Counted from the first letter of the stretch, positions 1 to 9,342 are shown. The stretch: 9,342 nucleotides of DNA from Candidatus Vampirococcus lugosii (GCF_018420025.1 NZ_JAEDAM010000039.1:1-9342); one strand, 5' to 3'. Numbers and translations: made by a program. Notes: generated by a model not told the origin, from the letters alone.

Positions 1-1076
1 GATTCAAAAAAAGAACTTGGCATAATTGAAATTGGTCTGATTGGGAAATAACTTGCAATTCTTGATATACAAAATTTTGAAATTCTTGTAAAAAGAGAAT
101 TTCTTGAGGTTGAGGATGAACAAGATGGACAGTACCAAAAGAAAATCAAAAAGATAAAAAATTGGAAGAAAATAATCAAAATAAAGCTAAAAAAGAAGAA
201 AATAAAGAAAAAGAAGATAAAGATAAAAAAAATGACAAACAGGAAAATAAAAAAGTAAAAGAAGATAAAAAAGATAAAAAATTGGAAAAAAATAATAAAA
301 ACGAAGCTATAAATAAAATTTTAGAAAAAATAATTGATGAAAAAAAATGAAAAAATATAAATAAAAGAATAAAAATTGAAAATAAAGAATTAAAAGAAAA
401 ATTATATTTATTTAATAAAATAATAAATTTTAATAAATTTGATAAAATTTTATCTTGAAATAAATATTATCAAGAAATGTTAATTTATTATCAATATATG
501 ATATTATGAATAGATTATTTTTTAGAAACAAGAAATCCTATTTATAAAGAGATTATTTTTGAAAATTATAAAAAATTTGATTATATATATAATATATTTA
601 ATGAAAATTATGAAAAAATAAATAATTTAATAAACAAAAATAAAAAAAATGAAAATAATACTGAAAATATTATAAATTATTACATAAAAAATTGAGTAGT
701 AAAAGAAAATATATTTAATAAATTAGATAATATTATTACAAAAAAAGAATTAGCAAAATTAATGAAATCTATAAATGATAATACTTCAATAATTAATTTA
801 AATGCAAATAAATGATGTTATATTACAGATATTTGAAATTTGGATTGAGTTTATGATTCAAGTATTAGATGGGCATGTTGAGTTTGAATTTTATGAACAG
901 AAAATAATAAATTCAATCCATACTCCCCTATTCAAATAAATAAATTTTACTCAAATTTATCAAAGTTTCATAATATTAATTATGAATTCAATAATAAATC
1001 TTTATTGAATTATAAAACAATTTTGATTGATTTATATGAAAATGAAAATGAAAATGAAAATATAAATCTAAAATAA
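1..1076 (+). CDS. Hypothetical protein, 5' end outside the window (frame starts at nt 3). It has a Cys/Trp-containing N-terminal stretch, a long Lys/Glu/Asn-rich low-complexity linker and an Asn/Tyr-rich C-terminal region.
   Basis: The frame with codon starts divisible by 3 is open from nt 3 to TAA at 1074-1076 if TGA is sense. I checked every triplet and found no TAA/TAG. Track ORF 162..350 is an in-frame fragment of it. Translation (TGA=G): FKKRTWHNGNWSDWEITCNSGYTKFGNSCKKRISGGGGGTRWTVPKENQKDKK...EKIIDEKKGKNINKR...GCYITDIGNLDGVYDSSIRWACGVGILGTENNKF...LYENENENENINLK*. I recognise no family. Confidence 0.7.
151..308 (+). repeat. In-frame internal duplication inside the K/E-rich linker. A ~38-nt unit at 151-188 recurs at 271-308, an offset of 120 nt (40 codons).
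   Basis: aagataaaaaattggaagaaaataatcaaaataaagct (151-188) against aagataaaaaattggaaaaaaataataaaaacgaagct (271-308) has 4 mismatches. The peptides are KDKKLEENNQNKA and KDKKLEKNNKNEA. Confidence 0.6.
1038..1061 (+). repeat. Hexanucleotide microsatellite (GAAAAT)x4 encoding ENENENEN at the C-terminus of the first CDS.
   Basis: Four perfect tandem gaaaat units are read directly at 1038-1061, in frame. Confidence 0.9.
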
Positions 1077-1106
1077 TTAATTTTATAACTAAATTCTGGT
1101 TTAATT

Positions 1107-1361
1107 TTAATTATTTGAATTTAATTTATCATATTCCCATTTTATAGGATTTTCTATTATATATTTTTTTATTTTATTTAATTCATCTTCATTTCTAATA
1201 ATTCTATCATAATATGATTTTTGCCATGAAAATAAAAAATCATTTTGTATTGCATTTATTTGTTTTGTTATTGTTCATTTTAATCATTTCATAATTGTAG
1301 GGACAAATTGCATTGGTCATTCTTGATTATATGAAATATTATTTTTTGAAACAATATTTAT
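1107..1361 (-). pseudogene. C-terminal remnant of an IS200/IS605-like (REP-associated tyrosine transposase, RayT-like) transposase. The N-terminal catalytic part is missing.
   Basis: The minus-strand frame is open only from the TAA at 1362-1364 down to the TAA at 1107-1109. The first ATG is at 1313, giving a 68-aa ORF at 1107..1313. Translation: (INIVSKNNISYNQEGP)MQFVPTIMKGLKGTITKQINAIQNDFLFSWQKSYYDRIIRNEDELNKIKKYIIENPIKWEYDKLNSNN*. The WQxxxYDxIIRNxxEL..I..YIxxNPxxW tail is the characteristic C-terminus of this family, recalled from memory. There is no room upstream for the HUH/Tyr catalytic core. Confidence 0.5.
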
Positions 1362-1378
1362 TTAAAATAATTAATTTA

Positions 1379-2383
1379 CTATTTAAAACTTCCTTTCAAA
1401 GGATAGTTATTTTTTATTTTTTTTATCATCAAAGATATTATTTTTAATAATTCTTTATTATTTTTTTCTAATTCATCATAATGAGGATAGTCAGATATAG
1501 ATCATGATTTTTTCAATAATTCTAAACAATAATAAGCATTATTAACTTCCCTATCAATTTGATATAATTTGTCTAATAATTCTATTATATTTTTGGAATA
1601 TTTTGATTCATTTATTAAAATTCAAACTATAGTTCATGATTCAAAAAGCTTGTTATTAATAAGATTTTCTTTTTTATTTTCACAAATAAAATTATATAAT
1701 TTCACTATATTTAAACTAAATTCAAAAGACTTTTCTTTAAAAGTTTTATTTTTTTTAACATATTTATCATAAGCCTTATTTTTTTCTTCAAATAATTTCA
1801 TATTATTATAAATTATCAATTCAGTATCAAAATCTTTTGCTTTCAATATTATTTTAGAATTTTCTGTAAAAAGATTATTTTCATTATATAAATTATCTTT
1901 TTTTTCTTCTATATTTTGATAATCAAAATTTTGAAAAACTATATTTCAATATTTATTGTTTTTTTTATTATTTTTATTAGTTTCATTTTCTTGATTAGAT
2001 ATAATCTCTTCTATAATTTCTAATTTTCTATTTTTCAGAGAAAAATATATTTGAGCAAATTTTTTTTGTTCAATATCAACATTTATATTATGACTAATAA
2101 GATAACAAGCATATCTTGTTAAAACAATATCAGATATTTCTTTTTTATTTCATTCTCATAATTTTACAGATTTTGTTATATAAACAAAATTTTCAGAATG
2201 ATTATATCAAATTGTATTACAATAATCTATAGATTTTGATATAATATTCAAAAAATTATCCCATTTAGTATATCAAAATAATTTTTGTAAATCTCTTGCA
2301 AGCCAAAATTCTGCTCAATTTCAAATATTTTGAACATATTCTTCAAAATTCAAAAATAAATTCTTAATAAACAATTTATCCAT
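1379..2383 (-). CDS. dinD: DNA-damage-inducible protein D (DinD)-like domain fused in frame to a C-terminal four-helix-bundle domain of the 23S rRNA intervening-sequence protein / DGR Avd family. Length 334 aa.
   Basis: ATG at 2383 is the first start after an in-frame TAA at 2405-2407. The stop is TAG at 1379-1381, followed by TAA. The frame contains 10 TGA and no TAA/TAG (scanned). N-terminus: MDKLFIKNLFLNFEEYVQNIGNGAEFWLARDLQKLFGYTKWDNFL...VKLGEGNKKEISDIVLTRYACYLISHN...AQIYFSLKNRKLE. This matches E. coli DinD from memory (NGAEQWSARQLGKLLGY...KDIVLSRYACYLVVQN...QTYFAIQTRRQE). C-terminus (about residues 219-334, nt 1382-1729): SFEFSLNIVKLYNFICENKKENLINNKLFESGTIVGILINES...LLDKLYQIDREVNNAYYCLELLKKSG. 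This matches the four-helix-bundle consensus (F.L.I.KLY..L...KE..L..QLLRSGTSIGANI.EA...KEA.ET.YWL.LL). Track ORF 1634..1846 is an in-frame fragment. Confidence 0.8.
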
Positions 2384-2443
2384 AATATTTTTTAATTTAA
2401 TTATTTAAATTATATTTTTATTTTTTTCTTAAAATTTCAATAA

Positions 2444-4672
2444 TTAATTCTCTTGTATATCTTCCAAATAAGAATTTATTGAATCTTGATCTATTTCTTT
2501 CAAAAACTCAATTGGATCAACTTTAAATCTATTAAAATCTGTTCTATTATTGGCAACCATATCAACAGAAAATCAAGGTATTCTATATGTATCTGATTCA
2601 GATATTATCTGTAATCTAGATAATCTATAATTCATATTTGTATCAAAAGTTCATTCAAACTCATGACCATTTACTGAAAAACTTAACATAAAAAATCATT
2701 CTTTTATAACTCTATTTATACTAACTTCTGATCAAAGATAATCTTTAAATCTAGATCTTAAAGACAAAATTTCTTGACGATCTAGACCCATAGAATCATC
2801 ATTTAATTTTACTAATTCTTCATATCATACACTAATAAAATTAATTACTTTTTGATCTGAAATATCTTTATTTGACGACATATCAGATAATTTTTTTTCT
2901 AAATTTTTATTATTTGTCTCAAATGAAATAAGTGTATTTGATTCCAATGATAAATTAATATAATCATTCTCATATTCTATACTAATATAATCATCTTGAC
3001 AATCTTTAATTTTTAAACCATCTTCCGAACTTACAAATTCTCTTAATCAATAACATATATTATATGTTGTATCTTGTCATTCAGATTTAATTAATACAGC
3101 TATATATTCAGATAAATCTCAAATTGATATATATTCCAAATTTTTCATATATTTATTTACTCCTTGATTAATATAATTATCATTTATTTTAATATTTTCT
3201 ATTTTAAAATCATATCAATAATCATTATAAAATAAAACTTGCACATCAAAATCTTTTTTAGATACTTTATCATCAACATTATATGAAACTGTCAATTTTC
3301 ATAAAGAAGTAAACTTTTTTTCTCAAGAACGTTTTCTCTTAGTCTCAATATAATTAGATAATTCTAATAAAAAATCATCATATTTACTAACAATAGTTTG
3401 TTTATTTATTTGCTCATCAGTTCATGCTCAATGTCCTTTATCTCATGATACAATAGTAAGTATTTCATCATCTCTTATTCATTCATATCAAACTAAATTA
3501 TCTCATCTACTAACATTAGAAATTTTATTTTCAATACTTAAAACACTATCTTTACTTGTTGCCATTATTGATGGATTTTTTTTGATATCGTCAGATATGA
3601 TATTTTTAAGATATTTTTCATTAAAATAAAAAACTATTTTTGAGTACATCTTATCAAGATTCTGTTTTTTTAATAATTCTTCCAAAAAAGATAAATAATT
3701 ATTTATTAGGCTAATAGAAGTTTTATTTAAAAGAATTTTTCTTTGAAAAATAATAATTTTTAAATTATTTAATTTATTATTTTTATAAACTCTAGTTCAT
3801 AATACTGAATTTAATTCAGATAAAAAAACATAATATTCTTGTGAAAATTTTAAATCAGATATTAATCCATCATCACATTGATTAACCATATTATCAAAAT
3901 AATCAATATTTCTTGATTGATATTTTATAGAATTATTAATTCATTTACAAAAATCAGCTTTATATTTATCTCAAACATTATTAAATATAGCACTTAAATC
4001 ACTTTCATATCATGAAAAATCATATAAATGCATATTAGTCAAAAAATTTTCTACATTTTTATTACATAAATAATTTAATAACTTACTTGAATTTAAACAT
4101 TTAAGACCAAAATCTGAAATAACATCATTTTTTATTCAAATAATATCTGGTTTATTTATCTTATTATAATCTAAACTTATATCATCATATAATATTTTTT
4201 CCAAATATCCTATAAATTCCTTTTTTTTTCAAGATTCCGTATATAATGGAACTGGCAAACTAGATAAATAAGCTTTATCTAATTCAAAATTAAATGGAAA
4301 AACAAATCAAGATAAATTAATTATATTAGAATTAGAATTTATTTTATTATCTCAAACTTCAAGAGTTCATCAAATCAAAGTAGTATTTAGATTTTCAACT
4401 TCTAAATCAACAACATCGTTTCATATATATAAATTATTTGCTTCAAATACAGATCAAGTCATACTATATCAATCTACTTTTCATCACATATTATCATATT
4501 TTACAGACATATAATCTGCATTAACATCAAAATCTACAAACCAAAAAAACAAAATAGAAACAATAATAATTATTATATATATTCAAGAAGGAAATAATAT
4601 ATTTCTTATTTTATCATATTTATTTATTATCAACAATAATTCTTCATTTAAATTATTTTTTTTATTATTCAT
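2444..4672 (-). CDS. Hypothetical 742-aa protein with a short N-terminal cytoplasmic tail, a single N-terminal TM helix and a large extracytoplasmic region. No family recognised.
   Basis: ATG is at 4670-4672 with an in-frame TAA just upstream at 4676-4678. The stop is TAA at 2444-2446. The frame contains 32 TGA and no TAA/TAG (scanned triplet by triplet). Track ORF 3503..3685 is an in-frame fragment. N-terminus: MNNKKNNLNEELLLIINKYDKIRNILFPSGIYIIIIIVSILFFWFVDFD, with the hydrophobic helix at about nt 4535-4585. C-terminus: ...FSVNGHEFEGTFDTNMNYRLSRLQIISESDTYRIPGFSVDMVANNRTDFNRFKVDPIEFLKEIDQDSINSYLEDIQEN*. Confidence 0.8.
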
Positions 4673-4887
4673 TTTTATTTTAATTTTTATATAATAAATA
4701 TTATTTAATCAATAAATATATTATAACAATATTTTATCAAATGTCAAAAAAAAAATTTAACAATTTGATGAAAAAATTTATACATAAAAAATCTTGATAA
4801 TTTTAATTTTTTAATTAAATAATAAATTATTATATATTTTTAGTAATATATAAATTGAAAATAATATAAAAAATAATCATTTAAAAT
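4673..4887. promoter_or_regulatory. Divergent intergenic region (215 bp) that must carry the promoters and 5' UTRs of the 742-aa gene (-) and the DedA-family gene (+).
   Basis: The call is positional only, because the region lies between two divergent start codons. A TTGATA hexamer sits at 4794-4799, and TATAAT-like strings are everywhere in this AT-rich context, so no specific -35/-10 pair can be supported. Confidence 0.3.
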
Positions 4888-5505
4888 ATGGAATTAGAAA
4901 TTATAAAAAATTTTTTGTTGGAAAACTTTTGGATTGGAAATTTAACTGTTTTTATTGCTGTCATTTTGGCAAATACATTTCCTATAATGTTTTTTGTATA
5001 TCCTTATTTAATAATTTTTTTATGAGTTTTTTTGTCAAAAAATTTTTGAGATTGGTATATTACATATTTTTTATTATTAATCTGATCTATCTTATGAGAA
5101 AGTATAAGTTATTTTTTTTGATATAAATATTGAGATAAACTTATAAAAAATAAACTATTCAAAAATGATAAATCACAAAAAATTTTAAATAAAATTTTAA
5201 ATAATAAATTTAAAACAATATTTTTTTGAAAAATAACACCATGAATATTTTGAATAATTCCTATTTTTTGTTGAATATTAAAAATAAATTTTACTTTTTT
5301 CTTCTTTACTAATTTATTAATTAGTATTCTTGCAGTAAGTTACATATTTTGATTTTTATATTTTGGTATAGAAATATTTGAAAAATATTTTTGAGAAAAT
5401 ATAATGTATATTATAATATATATCATTATTATATATTTAATATATCTATTTTTCAAAAATAGAAAAGAAATAATAAAAAATATAAAAAACATTAATAAAA
5501 AATAA
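4888..5505 (+). CDS. DedA / SNARE-associated (VTT domain) family inner-membrane protein, 205 aa.
   Basis: ATG is at 4888 and TAA at 5503-5505. Every codon was checked and only TGA interrupts the frame. Translation: MELEIIKNFLLENFWIGNLTVFIAVILANTFPIMFFVYPYLIIFLGVFLSKNFGDWYITYFLLLIGSILGESISYFFGYKYGDKLIKNK...FFGKITPGIFGIIPIFCGILKINFTFFFFTNLL... The G..LG(D/E)...Y..G...G and F.GK..PG.R...P..AG motifs are the DedA signature, and all four glycines of the first motif are TGA codons. Track ORF 4929..5126 is in the wrong frame. Confidence 0.85.
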
Positions 5506-5506
5506 T

Positions 5507-6637
5507 TTATGATAATATATCTTTTTTTATTTGTTCAGTTAAATTATGTAAATGGACTATATTATGCAATGATAATAATGTAGAACCTAACATTTCTTTT
5601 TCTTTAAATAAATGATGCAAATATCATCTCGTAAAATTTTTACATGTAAAACATTGACATTCATTATCCAAACTATCTTTACTCATTTTATGAATTGAAT
5701 TTTTTATTCTAATTCTTTCTCAACTACTATGAAATGCAACTCAATGTCTTGCAAGTCTTGTTGGTAAAACACAATCATACATATCTATTCATTGATATAT
5801 TGTTTCCAGTAAATCTTCAGGAGTTCCTACTCACATTAAATATCTTGGTTTATTTTCAAGCAATGAATTACTAAGCCAATCAACTACTTTATACATTTCT
5901 TCTTTAGTTTCTCATACACTTACTCATCATATTGCTATTCAGTCCCAAGCATAATTATTAAGAAAATCTAATGATTCTAATCTTAAATCTTTGTGCAATC
6001 ATCATTGTATAATAGGAAAAAGAACTCAATTTAAATCATTATACTTATTTTCAAAATAATCAAAAGCCTTTTTTGCCCATATATGTGTCAAATTCATTTG
6101 TTTAGCAGTTTGTTTTTTATCATTTCAATGCACAGGACTACATACATCCAAGACCATCATAATATCTGAAAACAAATCTCATTGTATATCAACTACTTTT
6201 TCTGGAGTAAAAATATGTTCTGATCAGTCTTTAGGAGATCTAAACCAAACTCAATCATTTTTTATTTTTACTAATGATTTATTTCTAGAACTTCTTTTAT
6301 CTAATCATAATGAAAATACTTGAAATCATCAACTATCTGTCAATATTAATCAATCCCAATTTTGAAATTTATGTAATCATCAAAAATATTTTACAGTTTT
6401 ATGTCAAGCACTTATATACATATGAAAAGTATTTGCCAAAATTATACCAATTTTTTTATCAGTTCAAGTATATTTAGGATCATTTAATATATCCAAAATC
6501 ATTGATTTAATAGTTGCTTTTGTTCATACGGGCATAAATACAGGAGTAGTTATCGTTTTTCAATTTAAATTTAATTTAGCGACTCTAGCTTTTCATTTAG
6601 TTTTTATAATATCAAATTTTAGTTTATTATTTTTCAT
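5507..6637 (-). CDS. tgt: tRNA-guanine transglycosylase (queuine tRNA-ribosyltransferase, bacterial preQ1 type), 376 aa.
   Basis: ATG is at 6635-6637 and TAA at 5507-5509. The length is 1131 nt, with 27 in-frame TGA and no TAA/TAG. Translation: MKNNKLKFDIIKTKGKARVAKLNLNGKTITTPVFMPVGTKATIKSM...[25 protein letters not shown]...MMVLDVCSP...FPIIQGGLHKDLR...WDGIAIGGVSVGE...[37 protein letters not shown]...CQCFTCKNFTRGYLHHL...SLHN. All hallmark Tgt motifs are present, including the CxCxxC zinc site with His 26 residues after the third Cys. The Cys in DVCSP and Val in SVGE are retained as in preQ1-type bacterial enzymes. Confidence 0.97.
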
Positions 6638-6739
6638 TTTTTGAGTATTGATTTTTTAGTAAAAATCTTTATTAATTATATATTAAATATAATTTAATTA
6701 AGTAATTTTCTTTTTATTTATTTTTTATATATTTTCAAT
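6638..6739. promoter_or_regulatory. Divergent intergenic region (102 bp) between the tgt start (-) and the 7TM protein start (+). Presumed to hold promoters for both genes.
   Basis: The call is positional. A TATAAT string at 6688-6693 is noted, but it is not significant at this base composition. Confidence 0.3.
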
Positions 6740-8314
6740 ATGAAAAAGTTTTTTATTTTTCTGTTTTTATATTTTACATTATTCTTTTCAAACTCATATT
6801 CTCAAGAAAATTTACAAATTTGAGAAAATTTTTCAACTTGAAGTATATTAAATCGAGATGATATCCAAAATTTTAATGTATGAATGAATTGTATAGAAAA
6901 TAAATATAAAATATCTGGTGAGGAAAATATAAAATATAATTCTTATTCAGATTATACTGTAAAAGCAAATGAAGAAATAAAATTATTCACTCCAGTAGAT
7001 GGTTTTATGCATATTTATAAGAATTGAAAAGAAGTATATTCTACAAATTGATTTTCTGTAAACTATGATTTCCCAGAAATTTGAGAATATGAAATTTTTT
7101 CTTATGTAGAAGATGCACAATGATGTTCTTATGAAATATGGCAAAAAATTAATTCATATAAAGATATATATACATATATAGGTGATGATATTCAACAATT
7201 AAGTCTTATTCAAAATACTTTTACTCAAAGAAATATTTATCTTGAAAAAATATTTATTCCACAAAAAAACTTTTTTTTGGAAGATGATTTTTTTTCTGTT
7301 ATATTAGAAAATACTGCTAATATTTCTGATTCAAGTATTATCATAATTAATAATGCAAATTTTTCTTCTATTTTTGAATTTTTGGGAAAATTTTCAAATA
7401 TTTATAAAATAGATCTTTCTGAAAAAGACTTTTTTCTTATTACAGATCAAAATACTAATTTTATTAAGAGAACTTTGGCACAATATATTAATAAAATTTG
7501 ACTTAAAAATATAAATATATTATCTTCTTGAGATATATTAAATTTATTTGATGATATATCACAAGATAATTTTAGAGTATATGAAAAAGAATATTTACAA
7601 ACTTTTTCAATATCTTTTGAAGATTCTGATAAACAATATTTTTTATCTTATGTTGTAGATGTATTATTATCAAATGATTTTCCTATTCATTTAATATGAA
7701 TTATACTAACTTTATCTACTTCCGTTTTGGTAGTAACTATTTTTAGACAAATTATAGGTTTTTCTGTATTTGGTGTTTATAATCCAATTTTGTTTGCTAT
7801 TAGTATGCTTGTTTTATGAATAAATTTAACTTTTATACTATTATTTGTATGATTATTATCTACTTTAGTAGTTAGATTATTTACCCAAAAAATATATTTA
7901 TTATATAGTGCAAAAATATCTTTACTTATGATAATATATTTTATATTAAGTTTTATTGTTTTTTGGATTGATAATGAATTTTGATTTTATTTTATAGATT
8001 ATTCTATATTTACAAATTCTTTTATTATGTTTCCATTAGTATTTATGATAATGGTATCAAATAAAATATTTAGCGAAAATTTTGTATTATTTAGTAAATC
8101 TTGGTTTATTTCTTTTATTGAATTTTTGATAGTATCTAGTGTAGTTTATACAATTATTACTTTATCAGAATTTGAATTTTTTATTTTAGCTTATCCAGAT
8201 TTTATTCTGTTAATATTAATTATAAATATTTTAGTTTGAAGATTTACTTGATTACAATTACTTGAATATATCCGTTTTATGCCTTTACTTAAAAATAAAT
8301 GAGAAGAAGAATAA
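6740..8314 (+). CDS. Secreted/membrane protein of 524 aa. It has a signal peptide, a ~290-aa extracytoplasmic domain of unknown fold and a C-terminal 7-TM module resembling the '7TM_transglut' (PF14402-like) family.
   Basis: ATG is at 6740 and TAA at 8312-8314. All codons were checked and only TGA interrupts the frame. Track ORFs 7277..7501 and 8027..8239 are in-frame fragments. N-terminus: MKKFFIFLFLYFTLFFSNSYSQENLQIGENF (signal-peptide-like). About seven hydrophobic segments lie between nt 7685 and 8239. The motif FRQIIGFSVFGVYNPILFAIS after TM1 and the C-terminal GRFTGLQLLEYIRF resemble, from memory, the conserved R..(V/I)G..TFGTF.P.L.A and (R/W)TGLRL.E..RF motifs of that 7TM family. Confidence 0.8.
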
Positions 8315-8400
8315 AATAATTCTTTTATATATTTGAAACTATATAATACTTGAAATTTAAATCAAAATCACAAAACAAACTTCATAAAAAATCATTAACA

Positions 8401-8431
8401 AAAAAACATTTCTTAATCAGAAATGTTTTTT
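8401..8431. terminator. Candidate bidirectional intrinsic terminator between the convergent 7TM and beta-helix genes.
   Basis: There is a perfect 13-bp inverted repeat, aaaaaacatttct (8401-8413) and agaaatgtttttt (8419-8431), with a 5-nt loop taatc. The A-run on the left arm and T-run on the right arm give a U-tract after the hairpin core when transcribed from either strand. It lies 87 nt after the + gene stop and 31 nt after the - gene stop. The stem is GC-poor with only 2 G:C pairs. Confidence 0.5.
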
Positions 8432-8461
8432 GTGTCTTATTTGATATAATTATACTATATC

Positions 8462-9342
8462 TTAATTATTACTTTCTATTTTTAAATTATCTATATCACT
8501 TTCACTATCTATATGATAATCACCTTCATTATTTCCAGAAAAAGTATTATTAATAATTTCAATATTATCAATTTTATTTTCAGAATTATTAATACGAACT
8601 CAATAATTATCATTATCATAAATATTATTTGAATCAATAGACAAAGAATTTGAATTATTAACATATATTCAATCTCAATCTCATGAAGTATCACTAATAT
8701 TAATATAATTATCTTTTGTAAAAGATATATCATTATCTTTCACTATTGATTTATAACTTTCATTATTTATATTTATATCAGTAACAGTTATAGCACTTCA
8801 TGAATTATATTCAATATCATTTCAAATAACTTCAACATGAAGAGTCGCATCACCTCATCAATTTAATTCAATTCATGCATACTTCTCGTCAGTATTATTA
8901 TTTCTATATACTTTATTGTTTTTTATCAGAACATATCTTTCATCAGGTTCTGTATCTTCATTTGATGGTGAAGAACCTACACCATAATGATGAATTCATC
9001 TTTCTATATTATCACTAATCTCTGTATTTATAATTTCTCCATAAGAATATAAAGTTATACCATCTCAAGTATTATGAGTAGATTTTGAATTTCTTATTGA
9101 AATATTTTTAGATTTTTTTACTCTAATTCAATCATCATTATTATTATGAGAATATACATTATCAATCAATATATTATTTGAAAATTCAGCATAAATACCT
9201 CTTTTACCAAACTCTTTAATTTCAATATTTTTAATTTCAATATTATCAAAATTATAAATATATATTCAATGTTCATTAATATCTGTACCATCCAATATTG
9301 ATCTATCTGTACCGACACCTATTAAAGCAATTCATTTTTTAT
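8462..9342 (-). CDS. Right-handed parallel beta-helix repeat protein (PbH1/NosD/CASH-like). This is the C-terminal 293 codons; the 5' end is outside the window.
   Basis: The frame is open from 9340 down to TAA at 8462-8464, with 14 TGA and no TAA/TAG (scanned). Translation: KKGIALIGVGTDRSILDGTDINEHGIYIYNFDNIEIKNIEIKEFGKRGIYAEFSNNILIDNVYSHNNNDDGIRVKKSKNISIRNSKSTHNTGDGITLYSYGEIINTEISDNIERGIHHYGVG...NNKVYRNNNTDEKYAGIELNGGGDATLHVEVIGNDIEYNSGSAITV...SGDGDGIYVNNSNSLSIDSNNIYDNDNYGVRINNSENKIDNIEIINNTFSGNNEGDYHIDSESDIDNLKIESNN*. Periodic N-(I/V)-x-(I/V)-x-(N/D) rungs with G(I/V) turns are typical of this fold. Track ORFs 8509..8733 and 8350..8553 are off-frame or antisense artefacts. Confidence 0.8.

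Follow-up and report, generated by a model that had tools for sequence, protein, structure and literature searches.

A contig of Candidatus Vampirococcus lugosii in which UGA is almost certainly a glycine codon

Genes and reading frames of the window

We analyzed a 9342-bp contig of Candidatus Vampirococcus lugosii (NZ_JAEDAM010000039.1:1-9342, assembly GCF_018420025.1), referred to below as the window, for the meaning of the codon TGA (UGA in the mRNA). The GC content of this stretch is 18.5%. When TGA was treated as a stop codon, as in translation table 11, the longest stop-to-stop frame in the window had at most 125 codons, and frames of 80 codons or more made up 31% of the window, many of them overlapping or spurious. 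Nine open reading frames (ORFs) of at least 60 amino acids were found with this table. They are the same set as that listed in the original prediction, which was made from the sequence alone and proposed that TGA is read as glycine (table 25). Five of these ORFs (162..350, 1634..1846, 3503..3685, 7277..7501, and 8027..8239) had been described as pieces of much longer frames, and each of them is an in-frame part of a longer frame bounded by TAA or TAG. The parent frames are 3..1076 (+), 1379..2404 (-), 2444..4720 (-), and 6698..8314 (+), the last of which holds two of the five ORFs. The remaining four ORFs lie out of frame with, or antisense to, the long frames and look spurious.

When TGA was read through, seven long, nonoverlapping frames appeared in the window. 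They are given below, together with a shorter eighth frame, with coordinates measured from the start codon where there is one and the stop-bounded frame in parentheses where it differs.

g1: 3..1076, + strand; truncated at its 5' end by the contig start; contains a Lys/Glu-rich low-complexity region; 16 TGA codons; ends with TAA
RAYT remnant: 1107..1361, - strand; 85-codon frame, probably left over from a REP-associated tyrosine transposase (RAYT); 3 TGA codons; ends with TAA
g2: 1379..2383, - strand (1379..2404); 334 amino acids (aa), DinD-like in its N-terminal half and with a TIGR02436 four-helix bundle at the C terminus; 10 TGA codons; ends with TAG; exactly MBS8122085.1
g3: 2444..4672, - strand (2444..4720); hypothetical protein of 742 aa with a hydrophobic segment near the N terminus; 33 TGA codons; ends with TAA; exactly MBS8122086.1
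g4: 4888..5505, + strand (4885..5505); DedA/VTT-domain membrane protein of 205 aa; 12 TGA codons; ends with TAA; exactly MBS8122087.1
g5 (tgt): 5507..6637, - strand (5507..6655); tRNA guanosine(34) transglycosylase, 376 aa; 27 TGA, 3 GGN, and 5 TGG codons; ends with TAA; exactly MBS8122088.1
g6: 6740..8314, + strand (6698..8314); 524 aa, with a signal-like N terminus and a C-terminal 7TM_transglut domain; 16 TGA codons; ends with TAA; exactly MBS8122089.1
g7: 8462..9340, - strand; truncated at its 5' end by the contig end; right-handed beta-helix/NosD-like repeat protein; 14 TGA codons; ends with TAA

Measured from their start codons, the seven genes occupy 91% of the window, and together with the short transposase remnant they cover about 91 to 94% of it. 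A similar tiling was not obtained anywhere in the window when TAA or TAG, instead of TGA, was made a sense codon. The long frames had been said to be broken by TGA alone, and this is what we found: each coding frame contains a single TAA or TAG, which is its terminator, compared with 18 to 91 of these codons in the two off-frames of each gene. In-frame TGA codons number 10 to 34 per long coding frame and 128 in total in the seven genes. The longest frame free of TAA and TAG has 758 codons, whereas the longest in shuffled sequences (n = 200) averaged 90 codons, with a maximum of 143. The long TAA/TAG-free frames are thus real and far beyond what chance produces.

The original prediction also counted eight frames that all end with TAA or TAG. 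Seven of them are long and the eighth is the 85-codon remnant at 1107..1361 (-); TAA ends seven of the eight and TAG ends one. As an argument about termination, this statement has some circularity, since reading through TGA was how the frames were delimited in the first place. It is still informative, because in six of the seven genes the last TGA lies 37 to 60 codons ahead of the terminator and because the alignment of Tgt with its homologs extends to the C terminus. That standard gene calling is nearly blind in this region was borne out: since UGA is a sense codon, table 11 breaks every gene into short pieces. A comparison of coding density under tables 25, 4, and 11, which had been proposed as a check, cannot separate table 25 from table 4, as both of them read through TGA.

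The residue encoded by TGA

To avoid presupposing a residue, TGA was first masked as X in the translations. Even in this form, the g5 product was already recognizable as Tgt (PF01702, E = 1.4e-105). The 27 TGA positions of Tgt were then filled with each of the residues whose codons are single-nucleotide neighbors of TGA, together with controls, and the resulting proteins were scored on the Pfam TGT profile (PF01702). Glycine gave the highest score (413.3 bits), followed by serine (370.3), asparagine (369.5), alanine (365.7), lysine (362.6), the neutral X (353.7), arginine (353.6), cysteine (336.4), leucine (325.1), and tryptophan (320.7), the lowest of the ten. Glycine was therefore ahead of the runner-up by 43 bits and ahead of tryptophan by 93 bits. 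The profile alignment that had been suggested as a check gave the same answer with TIGR00430, on which Tgt scored 426 bits with glycine, above the equivalog cutoff of 306.75, and 335.6 bits with tryptophan.

Glycine was also the best-scoring residue in five further domains of g2, g4, g6, and g7. The N-terminal half of g2 matched NF008573 (positions 6 to 137 of 288) with 124.6 bits for glycine, 109.9 for X, and 101.1 for tryptophan, and its C-terminal domain matched TIGR02436 with 36.7, 30.8, and 26.6 bits, respectively. For g4, the VTT_dom profile (PF09335) was matched with 54.0 bits (cutoff, 33.9) when TGA was glycine and was not matched at all with tryptophan or X. The scores of g6 on 7TM_transglut (PF14402) were 49.7 (glycine), 39.9 (X), and 36.3 (tryptophan) bits, those of g7 on Beta_helix (PF13229) were 70.0, 43.5, and 42.0 bits in the same order, and a match of g7 to NosD (PF05048, 40.3 bits) was obtained with glycine only.

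The codon counts point in the same direction. Among 2837 codons, TGA occurs 128 times (4.5%), GGN 34 times (GGA 11, GGT 23, and neither GGC nor GGG), and TGG 18 times, so that TGA would supply 128 of the 162 glycine codons (79%). The proteins then contain 5.7% glycine and 0.6% tryptophan. If TGA were tryptophan, the values would be 1.2% glycine and 5.1% tryptophan, an implausible composition.

The motifs on which the original prediction was built are all present in the translations. In Tgt they are MPV[TGA]T, LTDS[TGA][TGA]FQ, IIQ[TGA][TGA], AI[TGA][TGA]VSV[TGA]E, and YLM[TGA]VG; in g2, NI[TGA]N[TGA]AEFW and KLF[TGA]Y; and in g4, all four glycines of the DedA motif G..LG/Y..G...G are TGA ([TGA]SIL[TGA]ESISYFF[TGA]YKY[TGA]). 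TGG was likewise found at conserved tryptophans of Tgt, in FQNW and HIWAK, both of which align with tryptophan in TGT proteins of known structure. For the latter comparison, we used two PDB sequences from organisms with the standard code, 10fa (E. coli-type TGT) and 2ash (Thermotoga maritima), aligned by phmmer. At the 27 TGA columns of Tgt, glycine is found 18 times in 10fa and 17 times in 2ash, and tryptophan in neither.

Next, the codons themselves were compared. A scan of GTDB genomes gave three relatives, L001, L002, and L003, whose Tgt proteins are 77%, 62%, and 55% identical to that of the window, and a set of Thermoplasmata archaea with a bacterial-type tgt. Because raw DNA was read in the relatives, this test is independent of annotation. 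At the 27 TGA columns of the window, the three relatives (81 cells) have TGA 42 times and GGN 31 times, together 73 of the 81; the other 8 cells hold other codons, and TGG does not occur. In the archaeal tgt genes, GGN occupies 101 of the 155 aligned cells at these columns, against a background of 8.5%, and TGG again none. Conversely, TGG of the window at positions 94 and 187 of Tgt, where both 10fa and 2ash have tryptophan, corresponds to TGG in 4/6 and 6/6 of the archaeal genes, respectively. The orthologs of g6 are syntenic and adjoin tgt in L001 and L002. Of 16 TGA columns of the window's g6, 12 have TGA or GGN in L001 and 8 do in L002, with no TGG in either, and TGG columns of g6 retained TGG in 5 of 6 comparisons with the two genomes. 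A pooled tally across loci (window TGA against TGA, 184; GGN, 97; TGG, 2) was set aside in favor of these per-gene tallies, as it includes a shadow ORF antisense to tgt. The share of TGA among glycine codons drops with rising GC content, from 79% in the window (18.5% GC) to 77% in L001 (25%), 51% in L002 (29%), and 29% in L003 (34%).

Three other meanings of TGA were weighed against glycine. The first is a reading as tryptophan (table 4), as in Mycoplasma, Spiroplasma, and several AT-rich insect endosymbionts. A GC content as low as 18.5% is typical of the endosymbionts that use table 4, and the long ORFs are the same as with table 25. Full-length versions of two window proteins also exist in the Logan database with tryptophan at every TGA, namely P0129, corresponding to Tgt (5507..6637), and P0124, corresponding to the VTT protein (4888..5505), and many database homologs have tryptophan at TGA columns: over the 119 best database homologs of Tgt, the TGA columns hold 1582 glycines and 1148 tryptophans. 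However, P0129 and P0124 are table-4 translations of these same genes by an automated pipeline and not independent witnesses. As the Logan twin of the window's Tgt has tryptophan at all 27 TGA positions, this column tally was dropped as evidence. PDB sequences, archaeal tgt DNA, and the raw codons of the relatives were used instead because the database homologs include such table-4 mistranslations. The tabulation of the consensus residue at each TGA column, proposed with the original prediction, hence gives glycine when made against standard-code TGTs but is misleading when made against homologs from protein databases. Tryptophan, the lowest-scoring residue in Tgt and below even the neutral X, leaves the VTT domain of g4 undetected, is found at 0 of the 27 columns in the standard-code TGTs, is never exchanged with TGA in the tgt or g6 DNA of the relatives, and would entail the skewed composition described above. 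We consider this reading very improbable.

In the other two readings, TGA is not a general sense codon for either glycine or tryptophan, and we give each of them practically no credence. If TGA were a normal stop, the window would be a field of pseudogenes or noncoding AT-rich DNA, in keeping with the short ORFs that table 11 yields and with a window in which no tRNA or RNA family was found. However, about 2,800 codons of the seven frames contain 128 in-frame TGA codons and not one internal TAA or TAG, domain matches span the TGAs unbroken (positions 2 to 340 of 357 in the TGT profile), and the relatives keep TGA or GGN at these positions. The pseudogene reading is refuted because decay at 18.5% GC would add TAA and TAG at least as fast as TGA. 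TGA might also be a site-specific selenocysteine codon, as UGA is in many bacteria, or be reassigned to cysteine or arginine, whose codons differ from TGA by a single mutation. For selenocysteine, 128 sites (4.5% of the codons) are too many, and neither a selenocysteine insertion sequence (SECIS) nor any other Rfam family at gathering score was found in the window. Cysteine and arginine scored at or under the neutral X and far under glycine in Tgt, and the residue in the aligned TGA columns is glycine, not cysteine.

A few observations weigh against glycine. About one-third of the TGA columns of Tgt are at nonconserved positions, from which no residue can be inferred. In g6, one TGA is only 4 codons ahead of the TAA, and from the sequence, context-dependent termination is conceivable at that site. 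tRNA genes were looked for in the window and none was found, so the decoding machinery is taken from the literature. The profiles, the columns in the PDB sequences, and the codons of the relatives nevertheless all agree with the original prediction in assigning TGA to glycine and in ruling out tables 4 and 11. On these comparisons, the window is almost certainly a chromosomal contig of Ca. V. lugosii, an organism with genetic code 25, in which UGA is glycine. As shown here, UGG still encodes tryptophan, and UAA and UAG are the only terminators in use. UGA is the dominant glycine codon in an extremely AT-rich genome.

Other features of the window

Two of the seven genes have no family assignment. 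For g1, the Pfam matches were below threshold and confined to low-complexity sequence; it contains a codon run, TGA-GGT-TGA-GGA-TGA, that reads GGGGG under code 25. For g3, neither the Pfam nor the NCBIfam search gave a match. The gene g2 had been called DinD-like, which holds for its N-terminal half, but its C terminus is the TIGR02436 four-helix-bundle domain. A HEPN match in g2 was rejected, as it was below threshold and carried no information on glycine versus tryptophan, and TIGR02436 fits the region better.

The 85-codon frame at 1107..1361 (-) was not recognized in the Pfam search. It matched NCBIfam NF047646 (REP-associated tyrosine transposase) over positions 73 to 135 of 146 (E = 5.5e-9), with 36.1 bits for glycine and 33.6 bits for tryptophan, both under the cutoff of 80 bits. 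The frame lacks the catalytic N-terminal half, for which the space up to the end of g2 is too small. This frame, which corresponds to the C-terminal half of a RAYT, is probably what a decaying mobile element has left behind.

Two intergenic regions contain candidate signals. In the divergent region between g3 and g4, about 50 nucleotides (nt) upstream of the g3 start (4672), positions 4720-4747 (-) hold a perfect sigma-70 consensus, with TTGACA, a 16-nt spacer, TATAAT, and a TG upstream of it (12/12 matches). The promoter scan as a whole showed no enrichment (129 sites, compared with 125 in shuffles), so that only its position favors this site. In the region where g6 and g7 converge, a perfect inverted repeat of 13 bp, rich in AT, is present at 8398-8435 (+/-), with the arms AAAAAACATTTCT / AGAAATGTTTTTT and the loop TAATC. 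The hairpin has a minimum free energy of -12.2 kcal/mol (z = -4.45), and none of 200 shuffles was as stable. With flanking A- and T-runs, it is likely an intrinsic terminator that acts in both directions; having just 2 G-C pairs, it escaped the consensus scan.

On the strand opposite to tgt, two "shadow" frames free of TAA and TAG were found, at 5499-5954 and 6060-6659 (+), and similar ones are present in L001, L002, and L003. They seem conserved between loci because tgt itself is conserved. Such antisense frames give rise to false gene calls when TGA is read as a sense codon in genomes this rich in AT. The archaeal comparators also deserve mention. Several metagenome-assembled genomes (MAGs) of Thermoplasmata/Methanomassiliicoccales (L004-L009) carry a bacterial-type tgt whose product is 36 to 40% identical to the Tgt of the window over nearly the full query length. 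The presence of this gene in these MAGs, and not only of the archaeosine TGT, suggests interdomain transfer.

Lineage, decoding, and the codons CGA and CGG

The original prediction placed the DNA in an SR1/Gracilibacteria-type lineage, and this placement was correct. The best database match of Tgt (P0001), named Ca. V. lugosii, is the same protein with glycine at each TGA. Translated with TGA as glycine, the five complete proteins of the window are identical to the consecutive Ca. V. lugosii entries MBS8122085 to MBS8122089, the species belongs to the phylum Candidatus Absconditibacteriota (taxid 2789015), and the best named homologs of Tgt are from Absconditicoccus, Absconditabacteria, and SR1. 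The recoding itself is already known, for the lineage since 2013 and for this organism since 2021. The 2013 date is that of the reports, including Rinke et al. 2013, cited for SR1/Gracilibacteria in PMC8629427 and PMC8080830. For Ca. V. lugosii, a predatory bacterium, the genome paper of Moreira et al. 2021 (PMC8080830) reported UGA-to-Gly and predicted genes by Prodigal with table 25.

In its features, the window shows no categorical difference from code 25 as it is known in SR1/Gracilibacteria: UGA is glycine, UGG is tryptophan, termination is at UAA and UAG, and the host is an AT-rich candidate phyla radiation (CPR) lineage. The window is just extreme, with TGA as 79% of the glycine codons and with GGC and GGG absent. 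Its GC content of 18.5%, a value for the window and not for the genome, is below the genomic range of 0.21 to 0.53 quoted for these lineages (PMC8629427). With table 4, as found in Mycoplasmatales/Entomoplasmatales and in the endosymbionts Zinderia, Nasuia, Hodgkinia, and Stammera, where UGA is tryptophan, it shares the use of UGA as a sense codon in AT-rich reduced genomes, and the two codes yield identical gene models and the same coding density; unlike in table 4, the TGA columns of the window are glycine and never tryptophan.

As for the mechanism, the literature on the lineage reports a tRNA-Gly(UCA) and the absence of release factor 2 (RF2) (PMC8629427). By extension, a tRNA-Gly with the anticodon UCA would read UGA in Ca. 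V. lugosii, RF2, which terminates at UGA, would have been lost, and release factor 1 (RF1) would terminate at UAA and UAG. The terminators of the window (seven TAA and one TAG) are consistent with termination by RF1 only but are not proof of it. As in the window, no tRNA gene was found in the flanking DNA of L001 and L002.

Table 25 may itself be incomplete here. In Absconditabacteria/Absconditabacterales, CGA and CGG have been reported to be reassigned to tryptophan (PMC8629427, PMC13092985), and the same may apply to Ca. V. lugosii. This change would add to the reading of UGA as glycine and would not compete with it. The extended code (UGA as glycine plus CGA/CGG as tryptophan; Shulgina and Eddy 2021, PMC8629427) is known from the same phylum, and its signature was seen in L003 (MAG nzgw385; tgt at L003:459-1682). 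L003 has CGG, CGA, and CGA at the three Tgt columns that are TGG in each of the window, L001, and L002. Two of these columns, window positions 94 and 187, hold tryptophan in the PDB TGTs, and the archaeal codons there are mostly TGG; the third, 231, is phenylalanine in the comparators. The long ORFs of L003 contain CGA plus CGG 19 times and TGG 16 times. About 6.5 kb from tgt, at 8202-8275 (-), L003 also encodes a tRNA(UCG) with G73 and with U, not A, at position 20, which by the rule in PMC8629427 would provisionally be a tryptophan acceptor. Its anticodon stem is 4 bp long and lies below an A·C mismatch. Anticodon stems of this length are the subject of a 2026 paper (PMC13092985) that treats tRNA-CCG only, not tRNA-UCG. 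In the window, the two codons are near extinction (CGA 1 and CGG 0 of 2837), a state expected either before or after capture. Against the change, TGG stands at every conserved tryptophan position of the window, the only CGA (g6 codon 39, at 6854-6856) is in an N-terminal region that cannot be aligned, and the nearest relatives, L001 and L002, use TGG and have neither CGA nor CGG in their alignable columns. We regard this further reassignment as a serious possibility for Ca. V. lugosii but stop short of favoring it.

The use of code 25 is essential for annotation of this DNA. Hardly any genes are found with table 11, and in the full-length proteins obtained with table 4, about 4.5% of the residues are wrong. 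Table-4 entries in public databases would bias homology-based codon inference toward tryptophan and can contaminate alignments and profiles. Code 25 can be recovered correctly by a reader from the sequence alone. If CGA and CGG have been captured by tryptophan as well, the deposited g6 protein (MBS8122089.1) would be wrong at codon 39, with arginine in place of tryptophan, and the genome would be an extreme end-state, in which the captured stop codon UGA provides about four-fifths of the glycines and GGC and GGG have been lost.

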